In this document: in pieces, positions 37,901-57,931 of the stretch
Numbering within the stretch: position 1 is the stretch's first letter
Layout of the letters: the number at the start of each line of letters is the position of its first letter
Origin: Leptolyngbyaceae cyanobacterium
GTDB lineage: Bacteria > Cyanobacteriota > Cyanobacteriia > Phormidesmidales > Phormidesmidaceae
Length of the DNA stretch: 64,000 bases
Reading direction: 5' to 3'
Assembly: GCA_965263355.1 (NCBI GenBank)
Contig: CBDHHL010000032.1
Span: forward strand, 1,856,001-1,920,000
The notes under the pieces: generated by a model
The model's database searches: none
What the model was told of the DNA's origin: nothing
What the model saw: the letters and a program-made list of their open reading frames with translations, nothing else
Translations under genes and position numbers: made by a program

Positions 37901-38137
37901 ATGGGTGGATTTGATGCGGTGGTATCCGATGTTGAAATGCCTCATTTAGACGGCTTTTCCCTGGCCACCAAAATACGCCAGCAACAGGAGTATGAGGATC
38001 TGCCAATCATTTTGGTAACCACCTTGGATTCTGAAGCCGACCGCCAACGGGGGGCTAACGCTGGGGCCAATGCTTATATTCTTAAAGGTCGATTTAACCA
38101 GGATGCACTTTTAGAAACGTTAGAACGATTAATTTGA
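34985..38137 (+). CDS. cheA: Hybrid CheA with three Hpt domains and a C-terminal receiver
   Basis: LHGLKGDS, THSLKGDS and AHSLKGDA; HLVRNAIDHG; SGRGVGLDVV; SDVEMP. Confidence 0.93.
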   Translation: MMIQDEELRLLYQETNTVRLQKIQMGLLQLEQEPNNQTTIEDVRQELHGLKGDSSCLGLDAIATIAQELETVVKTLQLQQLKFTLEVSDCLYQGIYMIEQLASESLTGELSGLDYEQSLTALTTTIASVMAAVQSEDAAIQLRSIYIEDDELREIYRITSSRRLYTLETSLSKLENEITNAEVLEVLRRETHSLKGDSRVVGLESIGDLIQLLENVVKAIQRQSMSFTTDVNDYLQDGFQTIGQLVHAATSGDPISIDIDQTLVKFTAATPALVSFPTALDDETIDPGETTVATVDPVNGITRISDVTFNGTDGRADGHGGNVPEIAGLIADHELREIYQITSVERLERLENNLLYLEKHPNDNGALSTLLREAHSLKGDARSAGVESVETLAHAMEDILSQIQRQTLPLDSVVSDRLYEGLDAIGAYVQEAVTGLPVNLDIDQLLQGLRDTLTSDALQEEDSQSAPADSLAVVENQPEAGTQVETVRVHTRDLDALINQTEELAVTRIQIAQVASQSEQLITLWEEWQANKDQQQVASIPSYEERLEELILSLGLAVQNNSSRLESISETLRDRIRQLQLLPMSTLFQPLRRIVRDLAKAQSKDINLVFEGENTMADKRLLDGIKDAMLHLVRNAIDHGIETPAEREAMDKPAEANLCIKTYQTAISLTIEITDDGRGLDPEKIKQTAIKRKLHTQEELEAMPISQIQRLILTPGFSTRSFITEISGRGVGLDVVRSQVENLKGAIQIESTQGQGCTFRLQLSTALSTANVVLAETEGMTFAIPIEFLETTLLVSPEQIVDQEGQDTIVASGNQRIPIVELTSTLEISNSPIYDWVAQPSTYSGSARPCLVLKVGNDQAGFLVDRLLNNQEVVVKPLGSLLKRVRNVSSTTILSTGDVCMILNPPDLLKSLQQLPISDPSAKPKVALRHKPIILLVEDSPPVRIQEKRLFESAGYTVVTATDGLEGYNMLQMGGFDAVVSDVEMPHLDGFSLATKIRQQQEYEDLPIILVTTLDSEADRQRGANAGANAYILKGRFNQDALLETLERLI

Positions 38138-38163
38138 TTTTATTCAGCAAAAGATAACTGCGC

Positions 38164-39219
38164 ATGTCTATCCGTGTCCTATTGGTTGAAGATTCACCCA
38201 TTGCCATGATGATCTTGAAACGGATTTTAACCTCAGCCCCTGAGATTGAAATCGTAGGAACGGCACGTACTGGTCAGGAAGGACTTGATCTTATCCCCAG
38301 GATTCAACCTGATGTAATTTGTACGGACTTTTTCATGCCCCAGATGAATGGTCTGGAATTTACAGTCCATGTCATGGTTGATTATCCTTTACCCATATTG
38401 GTGGTCAGTGCCTCAGTTCAAGAGGATGATCCCTTACGAGTTTTTCAGCTGCTAGACGCTGGGGCTTTAGATATATTACCAAAGCCTAAAACGGGGTTAG
38501 ATCCTGACAATGTGTTACTTCAGCAAACGCTGATCAACAAAGTTAAGGTTCTATCTGGAGTTAAGGTTTTCAGAAAAAGGCGATCGCACCTAAAACATCT
38601 CCAACAGCCTGCCCCCTCCCAACTAAAACAACCTATCCTTAACCTGTGCAATCTCAAGATTATGGCTGTCGGCGCTTCAACTGGTGGGCCATTGGCCCTA
38701 CAACAATTATTTATGGGGCTACCCAAACCCTTCCCATTACCGATTGTCTGTGTTCAGCATATTAGCCAAGGATTTCTGCAAGGGCTGATTGACTGGTTAT
38801 CAACCACTTGTGGGGTTGATATTGAAATTGCTCAAGCAGGCGAACGACCACAGCCAGGTAAAATCTATTTTCCACCGGAGCGTCAACATCTCACCATTAA
38901 TAAACGGGGTCAATTTGTTCATACCCAGGCCCGACCCAACGATACCCACTGTCCTTCTGTAGACACATTATTTTTATCGGTTGCTAATTTTTATGGCCGT
39001 AAGTCCATTGGTATTTTGCTCTCGGGCATGGGTCGTGATGGAGCCGATGGGCTAAAAGCAATGGTTGATGCTGGCGGATCAACCATTGCCCAGGATGAAG
39101 AAACCTCAGTGGTATTTGGCATGCCAAAGGCCGCTATTGAACTTGGTGCAGCTAATCAAGTGTTACCCATGGCTGCGATCGCACCTGCCATTATCAAGCT
39201 AGTCAGCCATGTCAATTAA
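38164..39219 (+). CDS. cheB: Chemotaxis methylesterase CheB
   Basis: Receiver plus GASTGGP, VQHIS and LSGMGRDGA (S-H-D triad). Confidence 0.95.
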   Translation: MSIRVLLVEDSPIAMMILKRILTSAPEIEIVGTARTGQEGLDLIPRIQPDVICTDFFMPQMNGLEFTVHVMVDYPLPILVVSASVQEDDPLRVFQLLDAGALDILPKPKTGLDPDNVLLQQTLINKVKVLSGVKVFRKRRSHLKHLQQPAPSQLKQPILNLCNLKIMAVGASTGGPLALQQLFMGLPKPFPLPIVCVQHISQGFLQGLIDWLSTTCGVDIEIAQAGERPQPGKIYFPPERQHLTINKRGQFVHTQARPNDTHCPSVDTLFLSVANFYGRKSIGILLSGMGRDGADGLKAMVDAGGSTIAQDEETSVVFGMPKAAIELGAANQVLPMAAIAPAIIKLVSHVN

Positions 39220-39257
39220 CCAAATCACACCCTGATTGAACCTACAATAAAACAAAC

Positions 39258-40358
39258 GTGTCATCAATAAAGCCCCTTAGCCCACGCATAAAACAGGCGT
39301 TTACTCAGTTAATCGCCGAACGAATTGGTGTCACTCTCAGAAAAAATGATTATGCGAGTTTTCAAGATTTTATCTTAAACAGAATTAAAGCTTTAAAATT
39401 AAATTTACCCGAAGAATATTATCTGTTGCTCCATGCCAATACCTGTCAAAGTCATCAAGAATGGGAGCTACTTGTTTCAGACGTTACTAATACTGAGAGC
39501 TTCTTTTTTCGAGATAAGGGACAGTTCAAACTACTCAAAGATTACATTTTTCCAAGTATAATCGCTCACAAATCCCATCAGAAAAAACTTCAGATTTGTA
39601 GTGCTGGATGTTCAACGGGGGAGGAACCCTATTCCATTGCTATCTTGCTTAAAGATATTATTCCAGATCTCCAGGATTGGGCTATAAAAATTGTCGGAGT
39701 TGATGTTAATGCAGCTGCGATTCAGGTGGCTCAACAGGGTACTTATCGCAACTGGTCTTTTAGGGGAATAGACAAAGCCCTGCAACAACGTTTTTTCAAA
39801 GAAGACAACAATTATTATCATATTAATGCTGATATTAAAGCGATGGTCGACTTCCAGATCGGAAATTTGCTAGACGACTCATTGTTAGCTCCATTTGCCA
39901 AGCTTAAAGATATGGATTTGATCCTATGTCGAAATGTCTTTATTTATTTTAATAACTCAGCCATTGAAAAAGCCGTACATAAAATCTATGATGCCCTTTG
40001 TCCATCAGGATACTTGCTCGTTGGTCATACAGAGCTTTATGGCCAAAACTCAAACAAATTTCACATCAAAATGTTTGAAGAGTCCATTGCATACCAGCGA
40101 CCTGAAAGTGATTCAGTTCAACCTATATCTGAATTTTTGTCGATGCAGATGCCTTCTGCCTCACCTCACTTTATTGAAGCCAAATCCGATCAACAGGATT
40201 TGGGGGAATTGTTCAAAGGAAATGACATCAAAATGCATAAAACAGCCCTTAATTTGTTACGACAACTCCCCAGTGGCAGCAGAATACCTAAGCTCGGTAA
40301 TCGCACGGCTTCAGAGTTAATTGCACAGCTTGAAAAGAATCTTGAAGATACTGATTAG
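39258..40358 (+). CDS. cheR: Chemotaxis methyltransferase CheR
   Basis: TNTESFFFRD, SAGCSTGEEPYS, DLILCRNVFIYF and GYLLVGHTE motifs. Confidence 0.95.
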   Translation: MSSIKPLSPRIKQAFTQLIAERIGVTLRKNDYASFQDFILNRIKALKLNLPEEYYLLLHANTCQSHQEWELLVSDVTNTESFFFRDKGQFKLLKDYIFPSIIAHKSHQKKLQICSAGCSTGEEPYSIAILLKDIIPDLQDWAIKIVGVDVNAAAIQVAQQGTYRNWSFRGIDKALQQRFFKEDNNYYHINADIKAMVDFQIGNLLDDSLLAPFAKLKDMDLILCRNVFIYFNNSAIEKAVHKIYDALCPSGYLLVGHTELYGQNSNKFHIKMFEESIAYQRPESDSVQPISEFLSMQMPSASPHFIEAKSDQQDLGELFKGNDIKMHKTALNLLRQLPSGSRIPKLGNRTASELIAQLEKNLEDTD

Positions 40359-40381
40359 AGGAAACTGTTTAGAGAAACATT

Positions 40382-41458
40382 ATGGAAATGTCCTATTGCC
40401 TGTTTGAAATCGACCAACATTTTAGTGCTATAAAAACAGACTATCTTGAAGAAGTACTTGCACTGCCGGAGCTTATTCTGGTTCCCAATGCTCCATCCGG
40501 TATTATTGGTGTGATCGACCTGCGAGGAGAGGTTCTTCCTGTGGTTGATTTACGCCTTTGTCATGAAGAGCAATCTCAGCAGTATCGACTGAGCGATAGT
40601 ATCGTCATCTTAAAACAGGCTGATCTAAGCATTGGCATTGTTGTTACTAACATTCAAGATATTAAAGAACTTTCAACCCAGGGAATGATCACTGAATTCT
40701 CTGATTATCAAGGATGGATGAATCCCGATATCATCAGTTTTTTTGATGGCATAATCCTGAGTGAATCGATGATTTTTATGTTGGGTGAGCCCCAATCTTG
40801 GTTTAATCCTGGTGAACTACAGCAGATAATATCGGTTACACGATTTCTTGTGGATGACTTTTCTAAGGCGCGTTCAGAGCAGCCTGACATCCAGATATCT
40901 GCAACCAACGCTACGGCATTTTTTGTCCCTAATGCGACCAGCCAAGAGCAACTTATTTTTCGTCAACGGGCTAACGACCTTAGACAACCAATTGATGACG
41001 GAACTACTCTGGACTCAAGGGTTCTGATTGTGCTTGTCTTAGATGATAAACTGCTGGGGATTGATGCCAACTGTGTCCGCGAATTTATTACCATTAAACA
41101 GGCAACGCCTGTACCTTGCTGTCCCAGACACATTCTCGGGAGTACTAATTTGCGCGGAGAAGTTTTAACTGTGATTGATATTTCTGAGCCCATGGGTTTT
41201 CCTGTCAAAGCATTGCCTAGAAACCCTAAGGCTGTTGTCGTGGAACTTGATAATACCCTTGTCGCCGTAATTATAGAAGAGGTCCGTGATGCCCTGTTCG
41301 AGGTTAACTCAAACAATATTCAAATGGATGTGACATTCCCAACGCGCCATAACTATGTGCAAGGAACGGTTCCCTATGGAGAACAAATGATGCAAATCTT
41401 GGATCTGCCCAAACTATTGCACAGTGATGAGTTAATTGTTAATAACGAGTTTCACTAA
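40382..41458 (+). CDS. cheW: Double-domain CheW
   Basis: GVIDLRGE and GSTNLRGE; paralog of 19245-20342. Confidence 0.9.
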   Translation: MEMSYCLFEIDQHFSAIKTDYLEEVLALPELILVPNAPSGIIGVIDLRGEVLPVVDLRLCHEEQSQQYRLSDSIVILKQADLSIGIVVTNIQDIKELSTQGMITEFSDYQGWMNPDIISFFDGIILSESMIFMLGEPQSWFNPGELQQIISVTRFLVDDFSKARSEQPDIQISATNATAFFVPNATSQEQLIFRQRANDLRQPIDDGTTLDSRVLIVLVLDDKLLGIDANCVREFITIKQATPVPCCPRHILGSTNLRGEVLTVIDISEPMGFPVKALPRNPKAVVVELDNTLVAVIIEEVRDALFEVNSNNIQMDVTFPTRHNYVQGTVPYGEQMMQILDLPKLLHSDELIVNNEFH

Positions 41459-41645: not shown

Positions 41646-41863
41646 AATCTGCCGCGCCTACTATTAAGATTTTCCATCGTGAATAAACTCTTCAAATTCG
41701 AGGTTTCTTAAGAACGGATGGTACATTATCAAAGTTGAACATCAATACCGTTCCCGCTTTTTAGTGGAGGGCGTTTACGTTCCTTGCAGATCTAAAGTTT
41801 AGCCCAATACCAGTAATGGCAAGGGCATTCTTGGACTATCAAGGTCGTTTTTCAGGGTGGCTG

Positions 41864-43960
41864 ATGAGTTTATGCATTAATCCCGATTGTCCCCGGCCCG
41901 ATCATCCGGGTAATAATGAGGCCAATAGCTGTCAGGCCTGTGGGACAACTCTGATTTTGGCAGGGCGTTATCGTGTTATGCGATTGCTAAGCAGTCAAAC
42001 TGGTTTTGGCATGGTTTACGAAGCCTATGAACGGGATTTGCCAAAAATTCTAAAGGTGCTGCGTCGCGAGCATGGTCAAACGCCTAAAATCGTGGCTATG
42101 TTTCAGCAGGAGGCGGCTACATTAAGTCAGTTAAACCATCCGGGGGTGCCTTTTATGACTGAGGATGGCTACTTTACCCTGACCACCACCACCATGGCCA
42201 CGCCCCTGCACTGCATCGTCATGGAAAAAATTGATGGCATTAATTTAACCCAATGGATGAAACAGCAGGGCTACCATCCTATCCGTGAGCAACAGGCGTT
42301 GCGATGGTTGACTCAATTGGTTGAGATTCTGCAACAAATTCATCAAAGCAACTACTTTCACCGCGATATTAAGCCTGAAAATGTGATGATTCGTACCGGT
42401 GGTCAACTGGCTCTGGTGGATTTTGGGGCTGCTCGGGAAATGACTCAAACCTATTTAAAGCAAGTGAGTAATAGGGGAGGGATTGTCACCGCCATTAGCT
42501 CAGCTGGCTATACGCCCCCGGAACAGGAAAATGGACAGGCTGTGCCCCAGTCCGACTTTTACGCCCTGGGTCGCACTTTGATCTATTTATCGACAGCTAA
42601 AGCGCCCACCGATTCAGCCCTTTACGACCCTTTAGAAAATCGATTTGAATGGCGTGCCTATGCCCCTCAAATATCTACGGAGTTGGCTGATTTGCTAGAT
42701 AGTATGATTGCTCAACGGGTAGTGGATCGACCTGCCAGTGCCCAAGACATTCTGAGACGGCTAACGTCGTTGACTGACCGGATAGATCAAACAGCATCTC
42801 GATCTCCCAGTCCAACAGTTCCTGAAACTACCTTTCCCCAGGGTGCGCTGTTATCGAATTCAGCCTCCACATCGTTACAGTTTGGGATTACTACACCATC
42901 GTGGCAAACATTACCCCAGACGCTGTTGCCACCGAAGCGAAACCGGCGATGGCCCTGGGTGATTGCAACTTTGGTGGGTCTGGTGACCCTGGGCGGAGGA
43001 GCGATCGCACTGCGTCACTATGTCATCCCTCAACCTGTACCGGTGCAGCGTCCAGAGCCAAAACAGCTGAAAGTACAGCTCCAGCGAACGTTGCCAGCCC
43101 ACAGTGGAACTATCAATGACTTGCTGTTGTTTGCCGATGGCCTACGGATGGTCAGTGCCAGTGCAGATAAAACGATTCGGCTATGGGATTTAACCTCTGG
43201 TAAAGTGTTGCAAACTTTAGGCAATCAAACTGGTTTTGTCAATACGGTCCTGCTCAGCCCGGATGAAACCCTGCTTTACAGCGGTAATGCTGATGGTGCC
43301 CTACAGGGATGGATAATTGCCAACGGCACTTCACTTTGGCAGCAGCCTACTGCCCACAGTGGACCTATCAATACAATTACCCGTACCCCTGATGGTCAGC
43401 AATTGATCAGTGGTGGAGCCGATGGTCAAATCCATATTTGGCAGGCCAGCACCGGGCAATTGGTGCGCTCCCTGGATACTAAGCAAGGTGCGGTCAATAG
43501 TGTTGTGGTGACGTCAGACGGTCAGTACATAATTAGTGGCGGTAGCGATCGCACCATCAAGCTATGGAAAATCTCTACCGGCAATCTGGCTCGCACATTA
43601 AAGGGACATGAAAGTTTTATCAACGCCCTGGTGATTAGTCCAGATGGTCGTTTTTTATTTAGTGCTAGTGCCGACGGCACTATCCGTCAGTGGCAGATTA
43701 AGACCGGTAAACTGCTCCATATTTTGTCGGGACACACTAGCTTTATCAACGACATGGTCTTTAGTCGAGATGGTCGCACACTGAGTACAGGCAGTGCTGA
43801 CAAAACCGTGCGTATCTGGAATGTAGAAACTGGTGCAGCAGAACAGGTACTGACCGGGTTTAATATGCTGATCGATCACGTGGTGGTGTCATCGTCGGAT
43901 CAAATTGTGACAGCTAGTCGAACAATACCTGCCATCAAGGTTTGGTCGCGGGATCAATAA
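41864..43960 (+). CDS. Ser/Thr protein kinase with 4-Cys prefix, TM helix and WD40 propeller
   Basis: CINPDC...CQACG, HRDIKPEN, DFG, GYTPPEQ, TM segment and about seven WD40 repeats. Confidence 0.93.
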   Translation: MSLCINPDCPRPDHPGNNEANSCQACGTTLILAGRYRVMRLLSSQTGFGMVYEAYERDLPKILKVLRREHGQTPKIVAMFQQEAATLSQLNHPGVPFMTEDGYFTLTTTTMATPLHCIVMEKIDGINLTQWMKQQGYHPIREQQALRWLTQLVEILQQIHQSNYFHRDIKPENVMIRTGGQLALVDFGAAREMTQTYLKQVSNRGGIVTAISSAGYTPPEQENGQAVPQSDFYALGRTLIYLSTAKAPTDSALYDPLENRFEWRAYAPQISTELADLLDSMIAQRVVDRPASAQDILRRLTSLTDRIDQTASRSPSPTVPETTFPQGALLSNSASTSLQFGITTPSWQTLPQTLLPPKRNRRWPWVIATLVGLVTLGGGAIALRHYVIPQPVPVQRPEPKQLKVQLQRTLPAHSGTINDLLLFADGLRMVSASADKTIRLWDLTSGKVLQTLGNQTGFVNTVLLSPDETLLYSGNADGALQGWIIANGTSLWQQPTAHSGPINTITRTPDGQQLISGGADGQIHIWQASTGQLVRSLDTKQGAVNSVVVTSDGQYIISGGSDRTIKLWKISTGNLARTLKGHESFINALVISPDGRFLFSASADGTIRQWQIKTGKLLHILSGHTSFINDMVFSRDGRTLSTGSADKTVRIWNVETGAAEQVLTGFNMLIDHVVVSSSDQIVTASRTIPAIKVWSRDQ

Positions 43961-44640: not shown

Positions 44641-46614
44641 CTAAAACAAAACCAATACTCGAGCTTCTTTGGGTTCCAATTTCAACGCCAATAAGCCATC
44701 TGCCACATCTACCGATTGCCCCGTTTCCACTTGCTCGTATCGAGTCACACCTTCTTCAACAAATGGCAGCAAATACTCCCCTCCATAGGTAGAGTATGCA
44801 TATAGAATCCTAGGCTGTCCAGCTTCTCCAGATTCCCGTAGCATAAATAGATCATTATCATCATCTGCGCTTGGAGGCGACAAAAAGCGAGTTGTTCCAT
44901 AGCGCAAGACTGGATAATCTTGCCGTAGATGGGCCATATGTTGAGTGGTTTGATAAATCTCATCTTCCCAACCGATGGACTCTGGCCAAATCATCATCGG
45001 TCGATTAAATGGATCACCACCCACCCCAAAAAGTCCTTGATGTTTTGGATGATAGGGAACAGCCAACCCAGTTTCTGTACCATACATAATCAATGGCACT
45101 CCCCGAGCCGCAAATTGAAACTTAATTAGACTCTGATAGTCTTGTGCAGTGCCGTTAGGATAGTAGGTTCTGACCCTGGGCTGATCGTGATTTTCAATAA
45201 ATGTCACCCACCCCTTAGCATCTTCGTCAGAAATTTTATCGAGGGAGTCTCGCGGAATTTCCAAGGTTTGGGCAGGATTCAATAATCCTTTCGTCACACG
45301 CTTAAAGGGACCAGCATTGTAGTATTCTCCTTCTCGTCCCAGACAAATCTCCTTGAGTACATAGGGACGACCATCCCAGCCGCGATCGCCCATAAAAAAG
45401 CGACGGGCTGCTTCACTCAAATTAAAGTCAAACTGGGTAATATCGTCAGTACGGGTAAGGAACTCAATGCTGGGCTGATTGCGATAACCACCGCTAAAAT
45501 ATTCTCCCACCAACACGGCATCAGGATTGATGTCTAAAACCGTATCTTCAAACTTACGCCAGAATTTATAGTTGACGTGTTTGACCGCATCTAGCCGGAA
45601 ACCTGCAATCGGTGTTTGTTCCTGGTTGAAGGTAAGCCAGAACCTAGCTACATCTAAGAAATACTCTTCTACCTGGGGGGCAGACTGGTCTATGTCGGGC
45701 ATACCACCGCTGATTTGACCGTTTTCAATCAGCTCTTGAGATGCTGTATCAAAATCCCAAATCATCATCGGGGGGTGAAACCATCCCTGGGGATCCCGCT
45801 CACCGGTTTTTGGGTCCCAATGGGTGGCCACAAGCTCACCCTGACGGTAAATATTGCCATTATCCGCAAACCAAGATTCACCAAACAAAGATCCACCTGC
45901 TCCCAGCTCGGGAACCTCAGTGGAAATATGCCCAGGAGACGTTTGGTTCATTGTCAGGTCGAGGATAATACCGATACCATGCTCCGCAGCCTCGTTTAGT
46001 AACTGGCGAAAACTTTGGTACGGATCATCACTATTGGGAGAGCGATAATGCTCTTCCATGGCAAACCAGTCCTTAGTCCAATAGCCATGGTAAGAGGTGG
46101 AAATATGACGATAAAAGTCATCGGGAGCGGTATCAATCTTTGAACGATGCAGATAGCTCTCAATGTCAGGATGGTAAAACATCCCGTTCGCATTGTCTTG
46201 AATTGGCGACAAAATTATCTTGGTAATGCCCAACTGTTCAAGGTAATCCAGCTTTTGAGTGACCCCTTGCAAATCGCCTCCCCAATACATGCCCATGTAG
46301 CGATGGGTTGGATCATAAGTATGGTTGAGCATCAACCGGTTCATTGCCTTATAAAGCGTTTCGGACGAACTGTCCTCTGACGTTTCAGAAAAGGCAAACT
46401 CTGGCACATTATTTCTGGGTTCAGCGTCAAAAAAACGATCCACAACAATGTAATACAGTACATCGTTGCCAAGATTTCCACGGGTGTGAGCTAGGGCTGG
46501 GGGGCAAATCAGACTAAAACTCAGACAAAGGAATAGGCCGATGCTGAATAGGAAACGAATAAACAGGGAAGCAGGTCTCAAGGGAGGGTATTGATAATTG
46601 ACAACGGTAATCAA
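44641..46614 (-). CDS. Exported GH13 alpha-amylase/CGTase-like enzyme
   Basis: Signal peptide ending PPALA; YWGGDLQG, YHGYW; catalytic GFRLDAVKH / VGEYF / IENHD. Confidence 0.88.
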   Translation of the reverse strand: MITVVNYQYPPLRPASLFIRFLFSIGLFLCLSFSLICPPALAHTRGNLGNDVLYYIVVDRFFDAEPRNNVPEFAFSETSEDSSSETLYKAMNRLMLNHTYDPTHRYMGMYWGGDLQGVTQKLDYLEQLGITKIILSPIQDNANGMFYHPDIESYLHRSKIDTAPDDFYRHISTSYHGYWTKDWFAMEEHYRSPNSDDPYQSFRQLLNEAAEHGIGIILDLTMNQTSPGHISTEVPELGAGGSLFGESWFADNGNIYRQGELVATHWDPKTGERDPQGWFHPPMMIWDFDTASQELIENGQISGGMPDIDQSAPQVEEYFLDVARFWLTFNQEQTPIAGFRLDAVKHVNYKFWRKFEDTVLDINPDAVLVGEYFSGGYRNQPSIEFLTRTDDITQFDFNLSEAARRFFMGDRGWDGRPYVLKEICLGREGEYYNAGPFKRVTKGLLNPAQTLEIPRDSLDKISDEDAKGWVTFIENHDQPRVRTYYPNGTAQDYQSLIKFQFAARGVPLIMYGTETGLAVPYHPKHQGLFGVGGDPFNRPMMIWPESIGWEDEIYQTTQHMAHLRQDYPVLRYGTTRFLSPPSADDDNDLFMLRESGEAGQPRILYAYSTYGGEYLLPFVEEGVTRYEQVETGQSVDVADGLLALKLEPKEARVLVLF

Positions 46615-47889
46615 CTAGGTGCCAGTATGGTCGGGGTTGTTTAACACGGCCTGACTCGCCAAGGTATTGGCCAGGTCAATGCCATACTCTTGGAGAATAT
46701 CGGGGGGATTATTTGCGATCGCATCAGGCTCATAAAGGGCCTGCCAAAACGCTGGAAATCCAATAATGATCTCGTCTGAATCAGGCAAATGGGCTGTCTG
46801 AATCGGTGAATCAGATATCTGAGCTAACTGTATCTGATCCAAATGTCCGAACATAGAAAACCAAGCTCTATTGAACTGGGTACCCGCACTAATCATCCAC
46901 CCGGACCAACCCGGAGCTACCAACACAACACAGTAAACACCACAAATGATCGACAACAACCAACGCCGATTTAGACTGTAACGATCAGTCACAGGAGTCA
47001 ATCGCCACAAAAAGCGGTATCGTAACTCACGCCAATAGCCTTGGAGCGTCTCGACCAAACGATAGATATATTGAGACACCCTGGCCGACTGTTCTTGTTC
47101 ACTGAGGGCAGTCGCTTGTTCTCGTGCCCAAGCCGAATATTGTTCCTCTAGCCACGCTATTCGGAAATGAAACCACTCGCCGATATTAAAGCCAATAATA
47201 TAACCATAGGTATTGACCAAATAAAACGTGAGCATTTCGAAAAAAGCAAAATGCACTAGTGGAGCTAAGCTAAATTCTGCTGACTGGGCAAAGAAAATAC
47301 CCACTGTATACATCGACCAACTCAGCACCAGACCCGCATAATCCACTAACGGCTTTAGCAATACCTGACGCATGGGAATATCTTCACTAGTAGCATTAAG
47401 ATCCTCGTGGAGATACTTAGAAGCAATTCGCTGCCAACGGCTTGGACGCTCAGCAACAGGCGAGGGCGAGGGCTTGGGACGAAAGGGATTAACCTGTCCC
47501 TCAATCAGCATTTTGCGCCCTAGCAGGTAATAGATGAAGTACTGAATAATTGTGTAGGGAATCAGACCAGACCAGGTAAATGCCCGTTGCCAAGGCCCTA
47601 AACCTGTCACAATCAGGAAAAATCCCAAATCACATCCAATTTTCCAAGCAACAAACCCAATAGTCTGCTCAAATACTACGGGAAAATTTACCCGAATCGA
47701 TTGCCATCTCGGACCTTCTGGCAATCGCTGTAGCAATTTTTCCCTAACCGCAGGGCGGAGCAGTAACTGCTCAACTAACAGATCTCTGACTAATACATAG
47801 CTAGCTAAAGGTATCAGGATCTGAAAGAGCTTACTCGCTCCATACCGAATACCCATGGAATTAACTGAAATAAATGGCAGGTCGAGCAT
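46615..47889 (-). CDS. Unknown polytopic membrane protein
   Basis: 424 aa with about six hydrophobic segments; directly abuts the downstream GH13 gene and starts 15 bp after the upstream one. Confidence 0.8.
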   Translation of the reverse strand: MLDLPFISVNSMGIRYGASKLFQILIPLASYVLVRDLLVEQLLLRPAVREKLLQRLPEGPRWQSIRVNFPVVFEQTIGFVAWKIGCDLGFFLIVTGLGPWQRAFTWSGLIPYTIIQYFIYYLLGRKMLIEGQVNPFRPKPSPSPVAERPSRWQRIASKYLHEDLNATSEDIPMRQVLLKPLVDYAGLVLSWSMYTVGIFFAQSAEFSLAPLVHFAFFEMLTFYLVNTYGYIIGFNIGEWFHFRIAWLEEQYSAWAREQATALSEQEQSARVSQYIYRLVETLQGYWRELRYRFLWRLTPVTDRYSLNRRWLLSIICGVYCVVLVAPGWSGWMISAGTQFNRAWFSMFGHLDQIQLAQISDSPIQTAHLPDSDEIIIGFPAFWQALYEPDAIANNPPDILQEYGIDLANTLASQAVLNNPDHTGT

Positions 47890-47904: not shown

Positions 47905-50028
47905 CTAGTTAAAACAGTATTTGAGTACAATCAAGCTTCTGGCCCCAATTCTAAGTTTGAGAACATTAGCCTGGTTAGAAAAGGTGCCTGTAGATTTTTC
48001 TAATCGTGTTCCAGGAGAATAGGCCTTCTGAGAATTACGATTATTCGCTATCCAGTCACCGTCAAAGAGCACCGTCCAATATCCTGCAAAGCCATCAGGT
48101 ACTGGTAACTCGTAACACCGATCATGATCAAACTCAGTGGGACCAAAGTTAAACATCACAAGCAAAGAATCTTCTAACGGTCCATGGCCATGCCTAAACA
48201 GGCAGAGTAATGAATCATCATGGTTAACATGATGGACATGGGATGTTACCTGGGGGGCACCCGTTGCCGCATCTACCTTGGTGTAGGTACGAAATATCTT
48301 GCGTAGACTAACCATATCAGCGCGATGTTGGTCATGCAGCCGGAACACCTCATGGCTTGGCAATCCTGTGTCTAACCAGCTTTCTAAAGCTTTGCCAGAC
48401 AGCCCTTCCCACGCTACCTTCCACTGATTGTCATCATCTAAACAGCCCAAGCTTAAGGCATCCACACCAGGTGTGAACATATATCGTCGGGTAGCCATGA
48501 ACATTGTCAGCGCTTCTGCATTGCGAACCATGCGACGTACATAGTCAAGCAACCGCTCAGAAGACAGCAAGCCTTGGTCAATCAATATCTCACCGTGGTC
48601 CTTAGCTAGCTGGGCTGGATGCTTACCATATGCCCAGGGAACAGTCGGTCGGCCTTGGGTCACATGGGGACAATACCAGGTCTCATCATGGAGCTGAGCA
48701 TAGAACGACTCTGATCGCTCCGACTTCAGCACCTCTTTAATATGGGTGGCCAACACCTCAACATCTGCATGTAGTGGCCTACCAGAATCGGTTGGAGGCT
48801 TATAAAGCTCTTCTAATATGGAGAAACCAATCGGTGCATAAAAGCTATCAATAAACGATTTAACAGCCTCATTGCCAGCCATTTCAAAGGTTTCACCCAG
48901 AGTTAACACATCGGGACATGCTTGCTTGAGTTCGGTCCGGAGTTCTTGAATAAATAACTCTCCGTAATTGATGTCGCGGTTAGAGTACTGCAGGATCAAC
49001 CCATCCACATAATCAATCCGCACTACCTTAAGCCGGTAACGCATAACGAATGCAACAAACTTTTCAATCAACATTCGTCGGGTACTTGGTTGCTCTAAAT
49101 TCAGCATCCACGTACCGTAGTCCCGAAACAAAAAAGCCCCCGCATCAACAAAGGGTTTGGGATTATCCTCAACCACATTATCCATCGAACCCTCAAAGGG
49201 CGACTTTACCTGATGGGCAAAAATCAGATCGGGGATCAATCGTAGTTGATGCTTATTACATTGATCTAAAAGCTGTTTAAACTCTTGAGCCTGACCAATC
49301 TGCCAATCGACATCAACAAAGTTGTAGGTTAAGTAGTTGAACTTAGGATTGAGATTAGCCCGATTAGCCACCGAAGAGCAGACAGGCACCATAATTTCGT
49401 CAATCCCCTGGGTGGCTAACTGTCCAATCAAATCGGTCGACAGGATGCGAGCAGCAACGGAACGATAGTGGAGTTCATCCAAACTCCTCGGAGCAAATCG
49501 CCCTCCCTTATAGCCCGCCAATAACCCCTCTAACGTAGTTTCCAGCAAAACAGTAGCATGCTCATAGACGGGAGGAGTATGCTTCCACTCGTAGCGCAGA
49601 CACGGAATGTAGGTGGTGCCATAGAGACTTTCACCATTATTTAAAGGCGCAATCGATTTCCACTGCCCATCAGCGTGACGATATCGAAACAAAAGGCGAC
49701 TGCCTTCAGGTACCCGCTTAAGGTCCAATACCCACAATTCTGGATCTTCCCGAGAAGGATTTAATGACTGCCACTGCCCTCGTGCTAATCGCACCTGCAC
49801 AGAAGTAACCGACGGTTGAGTATTCTCCTCAGTCGTTGTAGGTAAATAAACGACCGCACAAATATCAGCTCTACCATCCTCAAAAACCTCAGTTACATGG
49901 GTTAGGTAGTTGGGTAAATAGCCAGAGTGCCAATGATCTAAAGAACAAGCAGGATACTCCAACGGACCAATTCTTGGAAAACTGATAGGTGCGGATTTCC
50001 CTTCCCGCAAGCCTGGATCAACAAGCAT
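47905..50028 (-). CDS. Divergent GH13 enzyme (branching-enzyme-like), no signal peptide
   Basis: PDLIFAH, DYGTWM, VRIDYVDG / LGETF / QLHDE and a GlgB-like C-terminal domain. Confidence 0.8.
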   Translation of the reverse strand: MLVDPGLREGKSAPISFPRIGPLEYPACSLDHWHSGYLPNYLTHVTEVFEDGRADICAVVYLPTTTEENTQPSVTSVQVRLARGQWQSLNPSREDPELWVLDLKRVPEGSRLLFRYRHADGQWKSIAPLNNGESLYGTTYIPCLRYEWKHTPPVYEHATVLLETTLEGLLAGYKGGRFAPRSLDELHYRSVAARILSTDLIGQLATQGIDEIMVPVCSSVANRANLNPKFNYLTYNFVDVDWQIGQAQEFKQLLDQCNKHQLRLIPDLIFAHQVKSPFEGSMDNVVEDNPKPFVDAGAFLFRDYGTWMLNLEQPSTRRMLIEKFVAFVMRYRLKVVRIDYVDGLILQYSNRDINYGELFIQELRTELKQACPDVLTLGETFEMAGNEAVKSFIDSFYAPIGFSILEELYKPPTDSGRPLHADVEVLATHIKEVLKSERSESFYAQLHDETWYCPHVTQGRPTVPWAYGKHPAQLAKDHGEILIDQGLLSSERLLDYVRRMVRNAEALTMFMATRRYMFTPGVDALSLGCLDDDNQWKVAWEGLSGKALESWLDTGLPSHEVFRLHDQHRADMVSLRKIFRTYTKVDAATGAPQVTSHVHHVNHDDSLLCLFRHGHGPLEDSLLVMFNFGPTEFDHDRCYELPVPDGFAGYWTVLFDGDWIANNRNSQKAYSPGTRLEKSTGTFSNQANVLKLRIGARSLIVLKYCFN

Positions 50029-50672: not shown

Positions 50673-53306
50673 ATGGACGTCATAGCGATTTGTCTGGCCT
50701 GTCAACTGACTGCCCAGCTACCAGCCCTAGGTGCGAATGCACCCATAGTTCCTTTTTTTAGGAAAGGCCTAGAACTGCCTGTTCAGCAATTTCTTTCTGG
50801 TCGCCAGGGTGATTTCTGGATGGAGCCTCATCCTCCTTATTTGAGCGGTTCCCTGCCCAAAGTATCGCCTACGTTGGCAGACGTGCCGTCTGCTAAGTCT
50901 TCTCAACCATTTTGGGTGCGATTGTGGCGAGCGCTTACAAGTGGGTCGGAAAATCTGCAAGAGGCTCCTGGGGCTCTGCAAGAAATTTCTGAAAATCTGC
51001 AAGAGGTTCCTGAAGCTCCGCAAGAGCCCTCTGGGGATCCACAAGAAACTCCTGAGAATTTGCAGGAAGCTCCTGATGAATCAGCTCAATCGGCACTTTC
51101 GACGACGGTTGCACAGAAATCGTCGGAGAGTGGTGCAGTCAGCGAGCGCTTGGAGATTTCTGATGCAGACAATATAGGTATCAAGACGCAAATTGCTGCT
51201 GCTACGATCGCTACATTAGAGCCAGAGCTGAGTCCTATGGTGGCAGGTACTGATGTGAAACCTGCTGCATCGCGTCCAGATCGCCAAGTTAGTCCGGATG
51301 TCGAGCTACTGCAGCTGGCATCTACAGAGTTGCTGGGCCAAGAGCCTGTCTTGGATGCCGAAACGTTTCAGCCAGTTACAGGTGCTACGTTTAACTCAGA
51401 TGGGTCTGTCACGCTAAGAGTTCTGGTTGGTAACCCAAGTGAGCGTCTAACGGTTATCGGTGACTTTAATGATTGGGGTAATCGTGAGGATTTGGACGCT
51501 TATATATTGGCTCCTTCAGCTGATGATCCCAATATTCATGAGGCAACGTTGCCCCCTGGTAATTATCACAAAGCTCAATACCGCTTGCGTGATCAGGACG
51601 GACGAGAGCGGATTGATATGGGGGCTCCGCTTTTCTCAACGCCGGCGTTTAATGCCCGATTTTATGGTCAGCGTGCCGATGACAATTTGAATGCAGTTTT
51701 CTGGCAATCCACCCCCATTCCGGAGGCTGAGTTGGCTCCTGCAATGGATTTACGTGGCCAGCAGTTGGTCATTGCTGAAACGGATGCGGTTTCGCTATCT
51801 ATGAAATGGACCTGTCAAACATCCGGTTCTCAGTATTTTGGTCAGACGGGAGCAGATAATATCGATCAGCTTTACAACTTTATTGGTGAATGTGGTTTGC
51901 CTGAAAAGTTGGCGGAGTTAGGGTACAACGCTGTTCAATTTATGCCCCTTGATGCCCATGTAGACTTTTGGGATCCGGAGCGTTTTCCTTTTCCGGACTG
52001 GCGTTACAGCTACATCAACATTAGCTTCTATGCTAAGCATGCGGACTTCGGTAGTCCGGATGAACTAAAGCGGATGATCAATGCCTTCCACAAGGCCAAG
52101 GTAGCAGTGCTATTGGATGTAATTTATAGTCATTACTCTGATAGTGGTAATAACCCGCCGCGAGAATTTTATCCCTTAGGTTTTTCCCAGTATCATCGGG
52201 AAGATGGCTGGGAGCTATATGGTGGTTCCTGGACTCGCTGGGGCACGCGACGCTTTACCTATATCCCGGAAATTCGTCGGAATCTAATTGATGCAGCTTT
52301 AGTCAATATTCTGGACTATGGGTTTGATGGCCTGCGGGTTGACAATGTTAATGGTATTGACCGTCAGCCGGAAGGCCGTACCTTTTTGCGGGAGTTGACT
52401 GAGGCCCTTGCTCTCTACCGACCTCAAGCCGTAGTGATTGGGGAAGGTTATTTTGGCGATGCTTACTTGAATCGAAATCGAGGTGTGGGTGGTGCAGGAT
52501 TGATCACCACTTATAGCGATCGCTTTTATCTTTGGTTTACTGAGAACATCATTAAATACAGAGACCAGATAGATACCCAGCGTCTGGACTATATGTTGTC
52601 CAATGACTGGCCGCTGACGCTGCTCTACTACCCGGGTAACCATGATGAATTTGCTAATCCCGGTAATCAGTTTCAAACTCGAGGACGGTATCTATCCGAA
52701 GCGATTCAAGGCGGTATTCATACTCGCAAGGTTCAGTCCTGGTCAGCCCTGGCTATGTTTGCCAGTTCCTATTATTTGGATATGGTGCAGTTATGGACGC
52801 TACAGCCCGGTAGCTTAAATGACAACTCGCAGATTGATTGGCCTAGGTTTGAAGAGCCTTATGTGGCCGAACTAGCTCGGTTCCAGAGTGACATGAAGCA
52901 CTTTTACACCAGTCAGCCTGCATTTGCTCCCTATAATATCCATAGCCGGATGCTCCACTGGATGGACCATGAAAACAAAGTAGCGGTGTTTGAAAAGATT
53001 GACTTTGCTACTGGTCAACGGGTCTATGCCGTTGTGAATCTGGGGGATGAGGCTATTGATCATTACAAGATTCCGGTCCTACCTGATGGAGCAAGTTTCC
53101 GACTGGCATTGGACAGCGATCAGTCTACCTACGGTGGGCAGGGTAAAAATTTGGAGTGGCTAATGTCAGATAATCAAGAACTCGAGTTCTACTTAGGGTC
53201 CTATGGTGTCGTGGGTCTGGTACAGCAGGATAAGTTTGAACTGCCAATGGAAACGCCTTCTGAATTTGAGCTGAATCGTCCTACGGGTGACTGGTACGGT
53301 TATTGA
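50673..53306 (+). CDS. GH13 enzyme (GlgB/TreZ-like) with CBM48-like domain and long acidic N-terminal extension
   Basis: VIGDFNDW, LGYNAVQFMP, LDVIYSH, DGLRVDNVNG / IGEGY / GNHDE and LDSDQSTYGG motifs. Confidence 0.85.
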   Translation: MDVIAICLACQLTAQLPALGANAPIVPFFRKGLELPVQQFLSGRQGDFWMEPHPPYLSGSLPKVSPTLADVPSAKSSQPFWVRLWRALTSGSENLQEAPGALQEISENLQEVPEAPQEPSGDPQETPENLQEAPDESAQSALSTTVAQKSSESGAVSERLEISDADNIGIKTQIAAATIATLEPELSPMVAGTDVKPAASRPDRQVSPDVELLQLASTELLGQEPVLDAETFQPVTGATFNSDGSVTLRVLVGNPSERLTVIGDFNDWGNREDLDAYILAPSADDPNIHEATLPPGNYHKAQYRLRDQDGRERIDMGAPLFSTPAFNARFYGQRADDNLNAVFWQSTPIPEAELAPAMDLRGQQLVIAETDAVSLSMKWTCQTSGSQYFGQTGADNIDQLYNFIGECGLPEKLAELGYNAVQFMPLDAHVDFWDPERFPFPDWRYSYINISFYAKHADFGSPDELKRMINAFHKAKVAVLLDVIYSHYSDSGNNPPREFYPLGFSQYHREDGWELYGGSWTRWGTRRFTYIPEIRRNLIDAALVNILDYGFDGLRVDNVNGIDRQPEGRTFLRELTEALALYRPQAVVIGEGYFGDAYLNRNRGVGGAGLITTYSDRFYLWFTENIIKYRDQIDTQRLDYMLSNDWPLTLLYYPGNHDEFANPGNQFQTRGRYLSEAIQGGIHTRKVQSWSALAMFASSYYLDMVQLWTLQPGSLNDNSQIDWPRFEEPYVAELARFQSDMKHFYTSQPAFAPYNIHSRMLHWMDHENKVAVFEKIDFATGQRVYAVVNLGDEAIDHYKIPVLPDGASFRLALDSDQSTYGGQGKNLEWLMSDNQELEFYLGSYGVVGLVQQDKFELPMETPSEFELNRPTGDWYGY
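50946..51071 (+). repeat. Six degenerate 21-bp coding tandem repeats
   Basis: Encode SENLQEA-PGALQEI-SENLQEV-PEAPQEP-SGDPQET-PENLQEA. Confidence 0.85.
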
Positions 53307-53525: not shown

Positions 53526-56500
53526 ATGAAGAGGGATTGGATAAACATATTCGTTCTGCCGCTATTTTTGGTATTGCTTCTGGTGGGAGGAAAGCCAAGC
53601 TATGCTTCGTCAGAGTCATCCCTTGCTTGGGTCGGTGACATGTTTCCTAGGGGCCTGTCAAGCAATATTCTTACCCAGGGAGACTCATTTACGGTTTATA
53701 CCCAGGTTTACAAACCTGGAGTCACTGATTTATCGGGGCGTGGTGAGAACATTAATTGCACCTTTTATTGGGGTGAGGTGGAGCAATTTGACAACGGTTG
53801 GAGTCAGGATTTTGAAACTCCGATGGTCTACAGCGGCGATATCGGTGACAACGACGAGTACAAAGTCACTATCGTTCCCGAAACAGGTCTTTATGAGTTT
53901 ACGACTCGCTGCAGTTCTCAGGAACCAGCCGTAGTGCGCTGGCAGAATAAGGGAAATGGACGGCTAATGGTGACGCCTCTGCCGGATGTCCCTAACGACC
54001 GTCGGGCCATTTGGGTAGATCGCTCTACGATCGCATGGAATCACCCTGAAGGTGCGACCTATGAACTGCACTACTCAATCGATGGCAATTTGATGGTGCC
54101 CGTCCGCCAGGGAACAGGCGTTCCCTTAAAGCTGAACGGTGTTTTGAACTGGCGCAGCTATAAGAAATTTCCGAACTTGAACAGTTACGATGCCTGGCGA
54201 TTGCCCAAGTCTGCTCAGCAGGATATTCCTGATATTTTGAAGAGTGAGGTTGCGATCGCAGCCTACGATACTACCGGTAAACTCATGGCTGCTACCGGTG
54301 TGCAGATGCAGGGAGTCCTAGACGATCTCTATAAGTACGATGGTGACTTGGGTGTGATCTACCACGGGGACACACCCACCCTCAAACTGTGGGCACCCAC
54401 GGCCCAATCAGTAGCGCTACAGCGGTTTACCGACGCCGATCCGGCAACTAGTGCCATTATTGAGCCCATGCATCTAGACCCCGAAACCGGCGTTTGGAGC
54501 ATCGAAGGAGATCCCAGTTGGGACAAGCAGTATTATCAATATGAGGTGAAGGTTTATACCCCGACGACGAGGCATGTAGAAACCAATTTTGTGACCGATC
54601 CTTATTCTGTGGGTCTATCTACCAACAGTCGTCTGAGCCAGATTATAGATTTAGAGAATGACGACAGTCTAAAACCTGAGGGCTGGGATAATTTGGCGAA
54701 GCCATCGTTTACTGTCCCTGAGGACATGGCCATATATGAAGTCCATGTGCGTGACTTTAGCCGCGATGACCCCTTAGTGGCCCCTGAGCACCGTGGCACA
54801 TTTAAGGCCTTTACCTACAACGGCTTAAATGGTCAGCCATTATCCCAAGGCATGAATCATTTGCTCAACCTGACCGAAGCTGGTCTGACCCACATTCATC
54901 TGTTGCCTGTCGCTGATTTTGCCTCTGTCGAAGAAGATATCAACGCGCGTACGGATCCCAACTCTGGTTTACTTAGCAGTTTTAGTCCTGATTCAATCCA
55001 GCAGCAAGCAATCATTGGCTCTACCCGTACCACCGACAGTTTTAACTGGGGGTATGACCCTTATCACTATGGGGTACCCGAAGGCAGCTACGCGACAAAC
55101 CCGAACGATGCCACCCGAGTCTTAGAATTTCGGGAACTGGTGCAGGCCCTTAACCAAAGAGGTCTGCGGGTTGTACTGGATGTCGTTTACAACCACACCT
55201 TTGCCAATGGCCTCTATACCCAGGCGGTGTTAGATAAAGTTGTTCCCGGTTATTACCATCGTTATAACCGAGATGGCTATTCGCAAAATTCTAGCTGTTG
55301 TGCTGATACTGCTGTCGAATTTGACATGATGCACAAGCTGATGGTGGATACCATTTTGCGTTGGGCAACTGCTTATAAGGTAGATGGCTTTCGGTTTGAC
55401 TTAATGAATTTGCTGACGGCCCATCGAATGATTGAGCTGCGAGACCAAGTATCAGCGTTGTCTCTAGAGCATGACGGTGTCAACGGTGAAGAGATTTACC
55501 TTTATGGGGAAGGTTGGGATTTTGGGTCTGCCCGTGACAATGGGTTTTACCATGCCAATCAGTACAACATGGCGGGTACTGGCATCGGTACTTTTAATGA
55601 CAAAATTCGAGATGCACTCCATGGGGGCTATTCTCAGGATCCTCTAGATAGTCATCGCCAGGGGGTGATCAATGGTCTTGCCTATGACTGGAATGGATAT
55701 TTCTATGGCAAACGGTTTCGCACTGATTTACGTACTCTAAGTGATCGCTTACGCATTAACCTGACGGGTAGTTTGCAAAGCTATAGTTTGTTGGACCAAA
55801 ATGACAATCAGGTGGATGGGCGCTTCCTGGATGGTGCAGGCTACACCCGTGATCCCCAGGAGGCGATTAACTATTTATCCAAGCACGATAATGAGGCTCT
55901 GTACGATTTGAATCTGTTCAAGATGCCGTTGGGACAGTCGGGGATGGCCTTGACTTCAATGAAAGAGCGGGTGCGATCGCAAAACCTGGGCCTCAGTTTT
56001 ATTGGTCTTAGCCAGGGAATTCCCTTTTTCCATATGGGCAGCGACATGCTGCGGTCAAAATCCCTTGATCGCGACAGCTACGACTCTGGTGACTGGTTTA
56101 ATCGAGTAGACTTTACTTACCAAAGCAACAACTTTGCGTCTGGGTTGCCACCGGCCTGGAATAATCAATCACGCTGGTCAGAGATGGCACCGCTGCTGGC
56201 CAATCCAGCCCTCAAGCCAAGTCAGGAAGATATTCTTGACTCAGTAAACCACCTGCAAGAGATTCTCAAAATTCGTAAGAGTTCAAAGCTGTTCCGTCTA
56301 GAAACTGCCGCTGATATTCGCTCTAGAGTCCGATTCCACAATACCGGTTCTAATCAAAAAGATGGCCTAATTGTCATGTCCATCAGTGATGATACTAGCC
56401 GTGACCTGGATCCTAACTACGAGAAAATCATTGTCCTTTTCAATGCCAATAAATCTGACCAACATTGGTACATGCCAAACCTAAAAAATACTGATGTAAC

Positions 56501-56633
56501 GCTGCATCCAGTTCAGGCGGAGTCCCATGATAGTGTTGTGAAAACAGCCTCTTTTAATGCCAAGACAGGTGTATTCAAGGTACCTGCCCGGACCACTGCC
56601 GTATTTGTTGTTACTGAAAATGCCTCTGCATGA
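53526..56633 (+). CDS. pulA: Exported pullulanase-type alpha-1,6-glucosidase (GH13)
   Basis: Signal peptide ending KPSYA; LWAPTAQ, FNWGYDP, DGFRFDLM / YGEGW / SKHDN and SGDWFNR motifs. Confidence 0.93.
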   Translation: MKRDWINIFVLPLFLVLLLVGGKPSYASSESSLAWVGDMFPRGLSSNILTQGDSFTVYTQVYKPGVTDLSGRGENINCTFYWGEVEQFDNGWSQDFETPMVYSGDIGDNDEYKVTIVPETGLYEFTTRCSSQEPAVVRWQNKGNGRLMVTPLPDVPNDRRAIWVDRSTIAWNHPEGATYELHYSIDGNLMVPVRQGTGVPLKLNGVLNWRSYKKFPNLNSYDAWRLPKSAQQDIPDILKSEVAIAAYDTTGKLMAATGVQMQGVLDDLYKYDGDLGVIYHGDTPTLKLWAPTAQSVALQRFTDADPATSAIIEPMHLDPETGVWSIEGDPSWDKQYYQYEVKVYTPTTRHVETNFVTDPYSVGLSTNSRLSQIIDLENDDSLKPEGWDNLAKPSFTVPEDMAIYEVHVRDFSRDDPLVAPEHRGTFKAFTYNGLNGQPLSQGMNHLLNLTEAGLTHIHLLPVADFASVEEDINARTDPNSGLLSSFSPDSIQQQAIIGSTRTTDSFNWGYDPYHYGVPEGSYATNPNDATRVLEFRELVQALNQRGLRVVLDVVYNHTFANGLYTQAVLDKVVPGYYHRYNRDGYSQNSSCCADTAVEFDMMHKLMVDTILRWATAYKVDGFRFDLMNLLTAHRMIELRDQVSALSLEHDGVNGEEIYLYGEGWDFGSARDNGFYHANQYNMAGTGIGTFNDKIRDALHGGYSQDPLDSHRQGVINGLAYDWNGYFYGKRFRTDLRTLSDRLRINLTGSLQSYSLLDQNDNQVDGRFLDGAGYTRDPQEAINYLSKHDNEALYDLNLFKMPLGQSGMALTSMKERVRSQNLGLSFIGLSQGIPFFHMGSDMLRSKSLDRDSYDSGDWFNRVDFTYQSNNFASGLPPAWNNQSRWSEMAPLLANPALKPSQEDILDSVNHLQEILKIRKSSKLFRLETAADIRSRVRFHNTGSNQKDGLIVMSISDDTSRDLDPNYEKIIVLFNANKSDQHWYMPNLKNTDVTLHPVQAESHDSVVKTASFNAKTGVFKVPARTTAVFVVTENASA

Positions 56634-57931
56634 TTGTTATCCAGAATGAACCCCTGCTTGAATTTATCAAACCTCGATATTCACTGACAGATATCCAGGC
56701 ACTGATCACATTCCTCAAGCAGCAGGGCACATTTGACTTTGCAGCCTTACCCAATGGTTTGTTTCCAGCTGCATTATTAACAGAAGAAACTGCCTACACG
56801 GGGTATGCGAATGTGTGGGTGCGTGACAACATGCATGTGGCCTATGCTCACTATAGGATTGGGGAGACAGCCGTTGCTGTTAAAACAGTCCAAACTCTGT
56901 TGACTTACTTTGGTAAGCATCGACATCGTTTTAACGCCATCATTCAGGGACAGGCCGATTTTCAGAAACCGATGAATCGCCCCCATATTCGGTTTAATGG
57001 GCAAACTCTGGAAGAAAATGAAGAGGACTGGCCCCATGCCCAAAATGACGCTCTGGGCTATTTCTTATGGCTGTATTGTTTGTTAGTCCGTGATGACCTA
57101 ATCGAACCGACCAGTGAAGATGTCGAAACGTTGGCACTTTTCCCGTTTTACTTTCAGTCAATTAGCTATTGGCAAGATGAAGATAGTGGCCACTGGGAAG
57201 AGACTCGCAAGATTGAGGCATCGAGTATAGGAGCTGTCGTCGCGGGGCTCAAAGCGTTGCGTCAAGTGCATCTGAAACCAGCATTTGTGACCCATTGTTG
57301 TCACCATGAGGGACAGTTGATTACACTACCCTTGTTGGATGAGTTGATTGCTAAGGGCCAGGAAGCACTGAACGAGATTTTACCGGCGGAATGTGTTCAA
57401 CCTAAACATGCCAGATCTGAAGATGGGGCCTTATTATTTTTAATCTATCCATTAAATGTGGTTGAGGGGGTTGTTGCCGATCAGATTCTCAATAATGTGC
57501 TCACTAACCTTGCTCGCGAAGTAGGTATATGCCGTTATCTTGGTGATTCCTTTTGGTGTGCTGATTATAAACAAAAGCTTTCTGGTGAACTGCGGACAGC
57601 AGATTTTAGCAACAATGTTAGCCTGCGCGATCAATTTTTGAAACCTGGAGAAGAGGCCCAGTGGTGCATTTTTGATCCGATTGTGTCGGTGATTTTTGGC
57701 CTGAAATATCAGACCACAGGCCAGGAAAAGTATTTGGACTTACAAATTCATCACCTCAATCGCGCCCTGGGTCACATTACGGGTACAGACAGTGAGTTTG
57801 GCAGTTTTCAATGCCCTGAGCTATATCACTTAGACAATGGTCGTTATGCGCCCAGTGATGCCACACCCTTGTTATGGACCCAGGCAACGTTACGGGTAGC
57901 CCTTGAAGTCATGGTACAAACCCTGACATAG
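56630..57931 (+). CDS. GH15 / phosphorylase-kinase-alpha-beta-like protein
   Basis: VWVRD, AQNDALG, DSGHWEE, EAQWC, PELY and PLLWTQA motifs; ATGA overlap with pulA. Confidence 0.85.
   Translation: MIVIQNEPLLEFIKPRYSLTDIQALITFLKQQGTFDFAALPNGLFPAALLTEETAYTGYANVWVRDNMHVAYAHYRIGETAVAVKTVQTLLTYFGKHRHRFNAIIQGQADFQKPMNRPHIRFNGQTLEENEEDWPHAQNDALGYFLWLYCLLVRDDLIEPTSEDVETLALFPFYFQSISYWQDEDSGHWEETRKIEASSIGAVVAGLKALRQVHLKPAFVTHCCHHEGQLITLPLLDELIAKGQEALNEILPAECVQPKHARSEDGALLFLIYPLNVVEGVVADQILNNVLTNLAREVGICRYLGDSFWCADYKQKLSGELRTADFSNNVSLRDQFLKPGEEAQWCIFDPIVSVIFGLKYQTTGQEKYLDLQIHHLNRALGHITGTDSEFGSFQCPELYHLDNGRYAPSDATPLLWTQATLRVALEVMVQTLT

Follow-up and report, generated by a model that had tools for sequence, protein, structure and literature searches.

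A six-helix membrane protein family of a conserved alpha-glucan gene cassette, a candidate malto-oligosaccharide carrier with a predicted, circularly permuted carrier-like fold

The window analysed here is a 64,000-nucleotide stretch of DNA from a Leptolyngbyaceae cyanobacterium (GenBank assembly GCA_965263355.1, contig CBDHHL010000032.1, positions 1,856,001 to 1,920,000, forward strand). An open reading frame (ORF) of 424 aa at 46615..47889 on its minus strand encodes a six-helix membrane protein of an unannotated family and is enclosed by two GH13 genes of the same strand. The upstream gene (47905..50028; 707 aa) encodes a remotely GlgB-like enzyme without a signal-like N-terminus and ends 15 nt before the membrane gene; the downstream gene (44641..46614; 657 aa) encodes an enzyme with a signal-peptide-like N-terminus and follows at a gap of 0 nt, counted from the ORF-finder start. 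The tight coupling to both neighbours that had been proposed in an earlier, sequence-only reading of this DNA is upheld by these gaps. Promoter and terminator scans gave signals at chance level. Together the three genes form a conserved alpha-glucan cassette, with the protein as its membrane member and both GH13 genes as core genes.

The membrane protein had been called an orphan, wrongly: searches gave 75 homologous proteins, 24 representatives at 50 % clustering, and 53 genomic and 19 metagenomic loci (72 in total). With a profile built around a divergent clade, 40 matches were obtained, and the final profile search reached no protein beyond the family. Among named homologues, the nearest ones are hypothetical proteins from cyanobacteria of the Leptolyngbya type (70–82 % identity), and a quick version of the tree, with uncertain long branches, places the window protein with them. 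No Pfam or NCBIfam family was matched above cut-off, no solved relative was found in PDB sequence searches, and no transporter family exceeded the Pfam cut-off in any of 104 family members; the absence of an ABC, MFS or glycosyltransferase signature noted earlier was thus confirmed, and none of these searches led to a known family unrelated to carbohydrates. A polyphosphate-kinase match (E 0.012) was rejected, being below cut-off and spanning only a cytoplasmic helical hairpin. The ESM Atlas gave no feature match for two homologues, and its model of one was unusable (pTM 0.26). According to the sequence-record descriptions, the hosts are for the most part cyanobacteria from mats, hypersaline and freshwater sites and symbioses, with Verrucomicrobia and unassigned long branches in addition. 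The gene is rare (4/401 cyanobacterial and 1/301 Verrucomicrobia genomes, the genome used as search centre being counted each time); several genomes carry two copies from different clades, each beside its own GH13 neighbours.

The association with GH13 genes holds across the family. At least one GH13 gene flanks the membrane gene at 67 of the 72 loci; where there is room for them, the upstream enzyme is present at 54 of 67 loci and the downstream enzyme at 54 of 61. Within the 401-genome sample, an upstream GH13 that is not adjacent to the membrane gene lies elsewhere in that genome, and both GH13s were found in exactly the four genomes carrying the membrane gene, a co-occurrence that is supportive rather than statistical, because the genomes are non-independent and few candidates were scored per genome. 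Two distant members (P0088 and P0090) are themselves fused to a GH13 via Fn3-like and other linker domains; a search for longer family forms retrieved none and must be regarded as insensitive, since it missed these fusions. The long-branch member P0087 (564 residues) starts with a leader and is extended at its C-terminus by a part that matches no known family. No description of the membrane family or of the three-gene cassette was found in searches of the literature outside subscription journals; the logic of the system is known, as is the fold group, and the membrane family is undescribed.

The proposed layout of one enzyme inside and one outside the cell was retained by a hydrophobicity heuristic, applied to the rows in which an anchor motif could be located: a signal-like N-terminal stretch is present in 37 of 40 downstream GH13s and in none of 25 upstream GH13s. 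The upstream enzyme of the window has an intact catalytic triad (D339, E379, D448). Its assignment to GlgB was rejected (37 bits against an NCBIfam cut-off of 577), and GlgB structures gave a remote profile match only (E 6e-11). The nucleophile Asp is retained in 38 of 43 aligned rows and replaced by Gly or Ser in the other five, with the gene kept; all five (L034:2500-4623, L035:2792-4951, L037:1273-3432, L043:4211-6319 and L045:1547-3691) belong to second-copy cassettes. The closest solved relatives of the downstream enzyme are the three-domain CGTase 6wni and the alpha-amylase 1qho; triad motifs were found in most of 49 long homologues, with GGMPD or GGLPD at region V. An assignment as CGTase was rejected, as Gly-Gly-Met/Leu replaces the central Tyr/Phe of conserved region V that serves as the criterion for cyclising CGTases in PMC8760340. 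In the exported GH13 of Nostoc parmelioides (L052:11100-13415), an insert resembles by eye the carbohydrate-binding-like domain of P0088 and P0090.

Three accessory genes lie on the plus strand of the window. A divergently transcribed gene at 50673..53306 encodes a GlgB/TreZ-like GH13 (877 aa; 13/72 loci), which begins with a short hydrophobic leader and may be exported; it is followed by a pullulanase-type alpha-1,6-glucosidase (53526..56633; TIGR02103 above cut-off; 12/72 loci), which has a signal-like N-terminus, as do all seven pullulanases scored (7/7), and by a GH15-like protein without one (56630..57931; 433 aa; 3/72 loci). The first two were found in two of five genomes searched. The leader of the 50673–53306 product is unusually short, hydrophobic and Cys-containing, the protein has a long acidic, proline-rich linker, and export of a branching-type enzyme would be unusual. 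A divergent GH13-like protein without a Pfam match (L043:10836-13346; 30 % to the 50673–53306 product) is encoded beside a cassette whose membrane protein carries EF-hand motifs.

Six membrane segments, in agreement with the number of about six suggested earlier, were obtained from family-averaged hydropathy (approximately residues 18–38, 74–95, 105–124, 177–201, 214–238 and 309–328), and both predicted structure models render them as long helices (transmembrane helices TM1 to TM6). The polar motifs pointed out before are present (FEQT at residue 73, WKIGCD at 82, KPLVDY at 179, NTYGY at 226 and GFNIGE at 233), although FEQT is unconserved across the family; W82, K83, D87, K179 and W191 are invariant (113/113 rows). 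Lys and Arg near the helix ends average 12.1 on the side of the long loops versus 2.1 on the side of the termini, a positive-inside bias of the same direction in all 113 members. Because of this bias, of the leaders on P0087 and P0088 and of the C-terminal GH13 fusions, an N-out/C-out orientation is predicted, with the long basic loops in the cytoplasm; a fused GH13 would therefore share the location expected for the free exported enzyme. EF-hand motifs were recognised in the cytoplasmic TM5–6 loop of six members. On TM1 to TM5 the conserved face lies opposite the hydrophobic face (138–179 degrees); its periodicity is significant on TM1, TM4 and TM5 (p 0.010–0.022) and not significant on TM2, TM3 and TM6. 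The conserved faces, from whose helical periodicity the putative cavity residues were deduced, are composed of Lys, Asp, Gln, Asn, Trp and Tyr. A conserved polar and aromatic helix face is the usual look of a sugar-binding cavity, and the lining suggests a sugar rather than a nucleotide, unlike that of SLC25 carriers.

The models predict a circularly permuted fold of the SLC25/CysZ/CTL type. TM1 to TM5 superpose on carrier helices H2 to H6 with a root-mean-square deviation of 4.4–4.5 over 172–177 residues (UCP1 8hbv; AAC 2c3e and 6gci), and TM6 is the predicted counterpart of H1, shifted to the end. The predicted six-helix bundle shares with SLC25 the short helices after TM2 and TM4 and, in TM6, a small-xxx-Gly...Pro pattern resembling an odd helix, whereas the family is bacterial, permuted in its predicted fold and only 7–8 % identical. 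Foldseek searches of the PDB and of viral models gave nothing significant. MFS and SWEET folds are not among the matches listed in the fold comparisons, an absence that does not exclude them.

Kinship with SLC25 was not detected at the profile level (hhalign P 0.08–0.27). Virus-encoded carriers were used for comparison (39 sequences; hhalign P 0.24 and 0.08), because no SLC25 gene was present in 301 Verrucomicrobia genomes or 14 controls; many viral contigs (L073–L118) encode compact SLC25 carriers of 190–300 residues with very short matrix loops. The carrier motif PX[DE]XX[KR] is absent at the P326 position of TM6 (0/113 rows), and strings of this type occur anywhere in the core of six of 113 members. 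An internal repeat was sought between TM2–3 and TM4–5: two of 25 shuffles reach its score, whereas control SLC25 repeats match at >99 % probability. By eye, W-S-G-L-I-P looks like the latter half of the carrier motif, a likeness that was rejected as unsupported by profiles. The best local hhalign match places TM6 on an odd helix, in the register predicted beforehand; none of 25 shuffles reaches its score, this being one of nine pairs tried. Scored with an odd-helix matrix against 362 unrelated hydrophobic segments, TM6 reaches the 98th percentile, with a score that is still negative, and TM5 the 94th; TM2 and TM4 are at background. CysZ and YihY (the YihY set being roughly extracted) likewise gave no hhalign match to SLC25, so this null excludes membership rather than remote kinship.

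CysZ and YihY have been proposed as bacterial permuted relatives of SLC25 (bioRxiv 10.64898/2026.03.31.715626). Their termini are described as cytoplasmic, so that the orientation predicted here would be inverted; they are widespread, whereas the family described here occurs rarely and in association with GH13 genes. No hhalign match to either was obtained, which in view of the rough YihY set and of the missing match of both families to SLC25 excludes close membership only. The matches listed by Pfam for the 104 members (25 of 33 families, E ≤ 10) do not include Mito_carr, EI24 (PF07264), BrkB (PF03631) or Choline_transpo, and there is no sequence link to CTL/SLC44. CTL1 (7wwb and 9qu3) is eukaryotic, has ten helices against six here and is proposed to be non-transporting. 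Membership of the MalF/MalG type was not indicated (no BPD_transp_1 match, no conserved ABC cassette alongside), nor was that of MFS (12 helices) or SWEET (3/7 helices), given six helices and no Pfam match.

A complex of one homologue (locus L065) with its cytoplasmic GH13 was predicted at a score of 0.57, compared with 0.01 for the best control; the runs agree in ≥93 % of contacts, with a partner pLDDT of ≥65. In the calibration, 116 of 157 solved pairs attained the mark, as did two of 215 mismatched pairs. Docking of the cytoplasmic GH13 on the membrane protein is given weak support by this model, because the range of ≤0.60 holds just 18 of the 157 solved pairs and both mismatched ones. GH13-fold proteins that are partly catalytically dead and have transporter partners are known from the SLC3 heavy chains (4F2hc/rBAT), which are extracellular, single-pass and eukaryotic and pair with LeuT-fold transporters.

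The sequence-only reading had offered a translocator or a scaffold; the predicted fold points to the former more than to the latter, although a docking role towards the cytoplasmic GH13 also has weak support. Transport of malto-oligosaccharides, in whichever direction, is probable. The reading favoured here, with a probability of roughly 0.45, is that of an ATP-independent, permuted mitochondrial-carrier-like protein that imports short malto-oligosaccharides to the cytoplasmic GH13. Such a protein would add a new kind to the sugar transporters of bacteria. This reading builds on the computed gene order, co-occurrence, GH13 fusions, six helices, charge bias and conserved polar and aromatic faces, and on the predicted fold, outside termini and docking. 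The exported GH13, together with the pullulanase where present, would cut alpha-glucan in the periplasm; the carrier would admit the pieces by alternating access; and the docked GlgB-like enzyme would transfer or branch them into the cytoplasmic glycogen pool, EF-hand copies possibly adding calcium control from the cytoplasmic side. This follows the logic of the cld, cym and mal clusters, in which, according to PMC8760340, the genes for an exported CGTase or amylase and for a transporter lie together with those for GH13 and GH15 enzymes of the cytoplasm. The enzyme–transporter–enzyme layout is the same, and a three-domain CGTase is the best solved match of the exported enzyme; their transporter is an ABC importer with a binding protein, in whose place the present cassette has a single non-ABC protein. 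The enzymes differ as well: the exported one has no aromatic residue of the cyclising type, and the inner one is not a cyclodextrinase but GlgB-like.

Such carriers can work in either direction, and the same protein might instead export glycogen-derived oligomers made by the cytoplasmic GH13, to be elongated, branched and trimmed outside into a periplasmic alpha-glucan that serves as osmolyte or outside store. Export would suit the predominance of phototrophs among the hosts (many of them, judging by the record descriptions, from salty mats or symbioses), the leader on the accessory GlgB-like enzyme, the transglycosylase nature of the exported GH13's closest solved relative, and the lack of a recognised outer-membrane uptake gene among the recurring neighbours. 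It is nevertheless unlikely: region V of the exported GH13 reads Gly-Gly-Met/Leu where cyclisation needs an aromatic (criterion of PMC8760340), the exported accessory enzyme of pullulanase type is degradative, and a search of five cassette genomes failed to find the GlgB-like enzyme with a leader in three of them.

An improbable role, too, is that of a non-transporting anchor or sensor, comparable to that proposed for CTL1, which would bind glucan or product outside and control the docked GH13, with calcium acting in some copies. The weak predicted complex (0.57 versus 0.01), the EF-hand motifs and the upstream GH13 genes kept after loss of the nucleophile (5/43), three of which adjoin EF-hand members, agree with it, as does the observation that CTL proteins of the same fold showed no choline transport. 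Against it, the strongest conservation falls on polar and aromatic positions within the helices, the nucleophile of the cytoplasmic GH13 is intact in most rows, and recurring regulators in the loci are limited to generic response-regulator proteins.

Transport of another pathway solute (glucose, glucose-1-phosphate, ADP-glucose, phosphate or lipid-linked glucan) is very unlikely: three conserved helix lysines (K20, K83, K179), the sulfate transport of CysZ and the mostly anionic and nucleotide substrates of SLC25 proteins (PMC12410006) would allow it, but the lysines are balanced by conserved acids (D87, D183, E238), aromatics dominate the conserved faces, and the recurring neighbours include no recognised synthase, phosphorylase or kinase. 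GH13 enzymes, moreover, are not known to use nucleotide sugars.

An extension of the import reading can be put forward tentatively, as on balance doubtful: the family may represent a bacterial branch of the carrier fold, structurally at least as close to UCP1 and AAC as CysZ and YihY are, which would be inserted in inverted orientation and transport malto-oligosaccharides while a GH13 is docked at the cytoplasmic side, and of which one clade would have gained an EF-hand pair placed like the calcium domain of the SLC25 ATP-Mg/Pi carriers. In some copies the pair precedes the H1-equivalent helix, much as the EF-hand domain precedes the carrier domain in the ATP-Mg/Pi carriers (PMC12410006). If true, sugar transporters would gain a new class, and ideas on the origin of SLC25 could be tested in a bacterial model.

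Elsewhere in the window, a Ser/Thr kinase fused to a WD40 propeller is encoded at 41816–43960, convergent with the glucan cassette. A chemosensory cluster was recognised by eye at 34985–41458; a CheA-like gene product containing three Hpt-like repeats plus a receiver domain is followed by CheB-, CheR- and double CheW-like genes.
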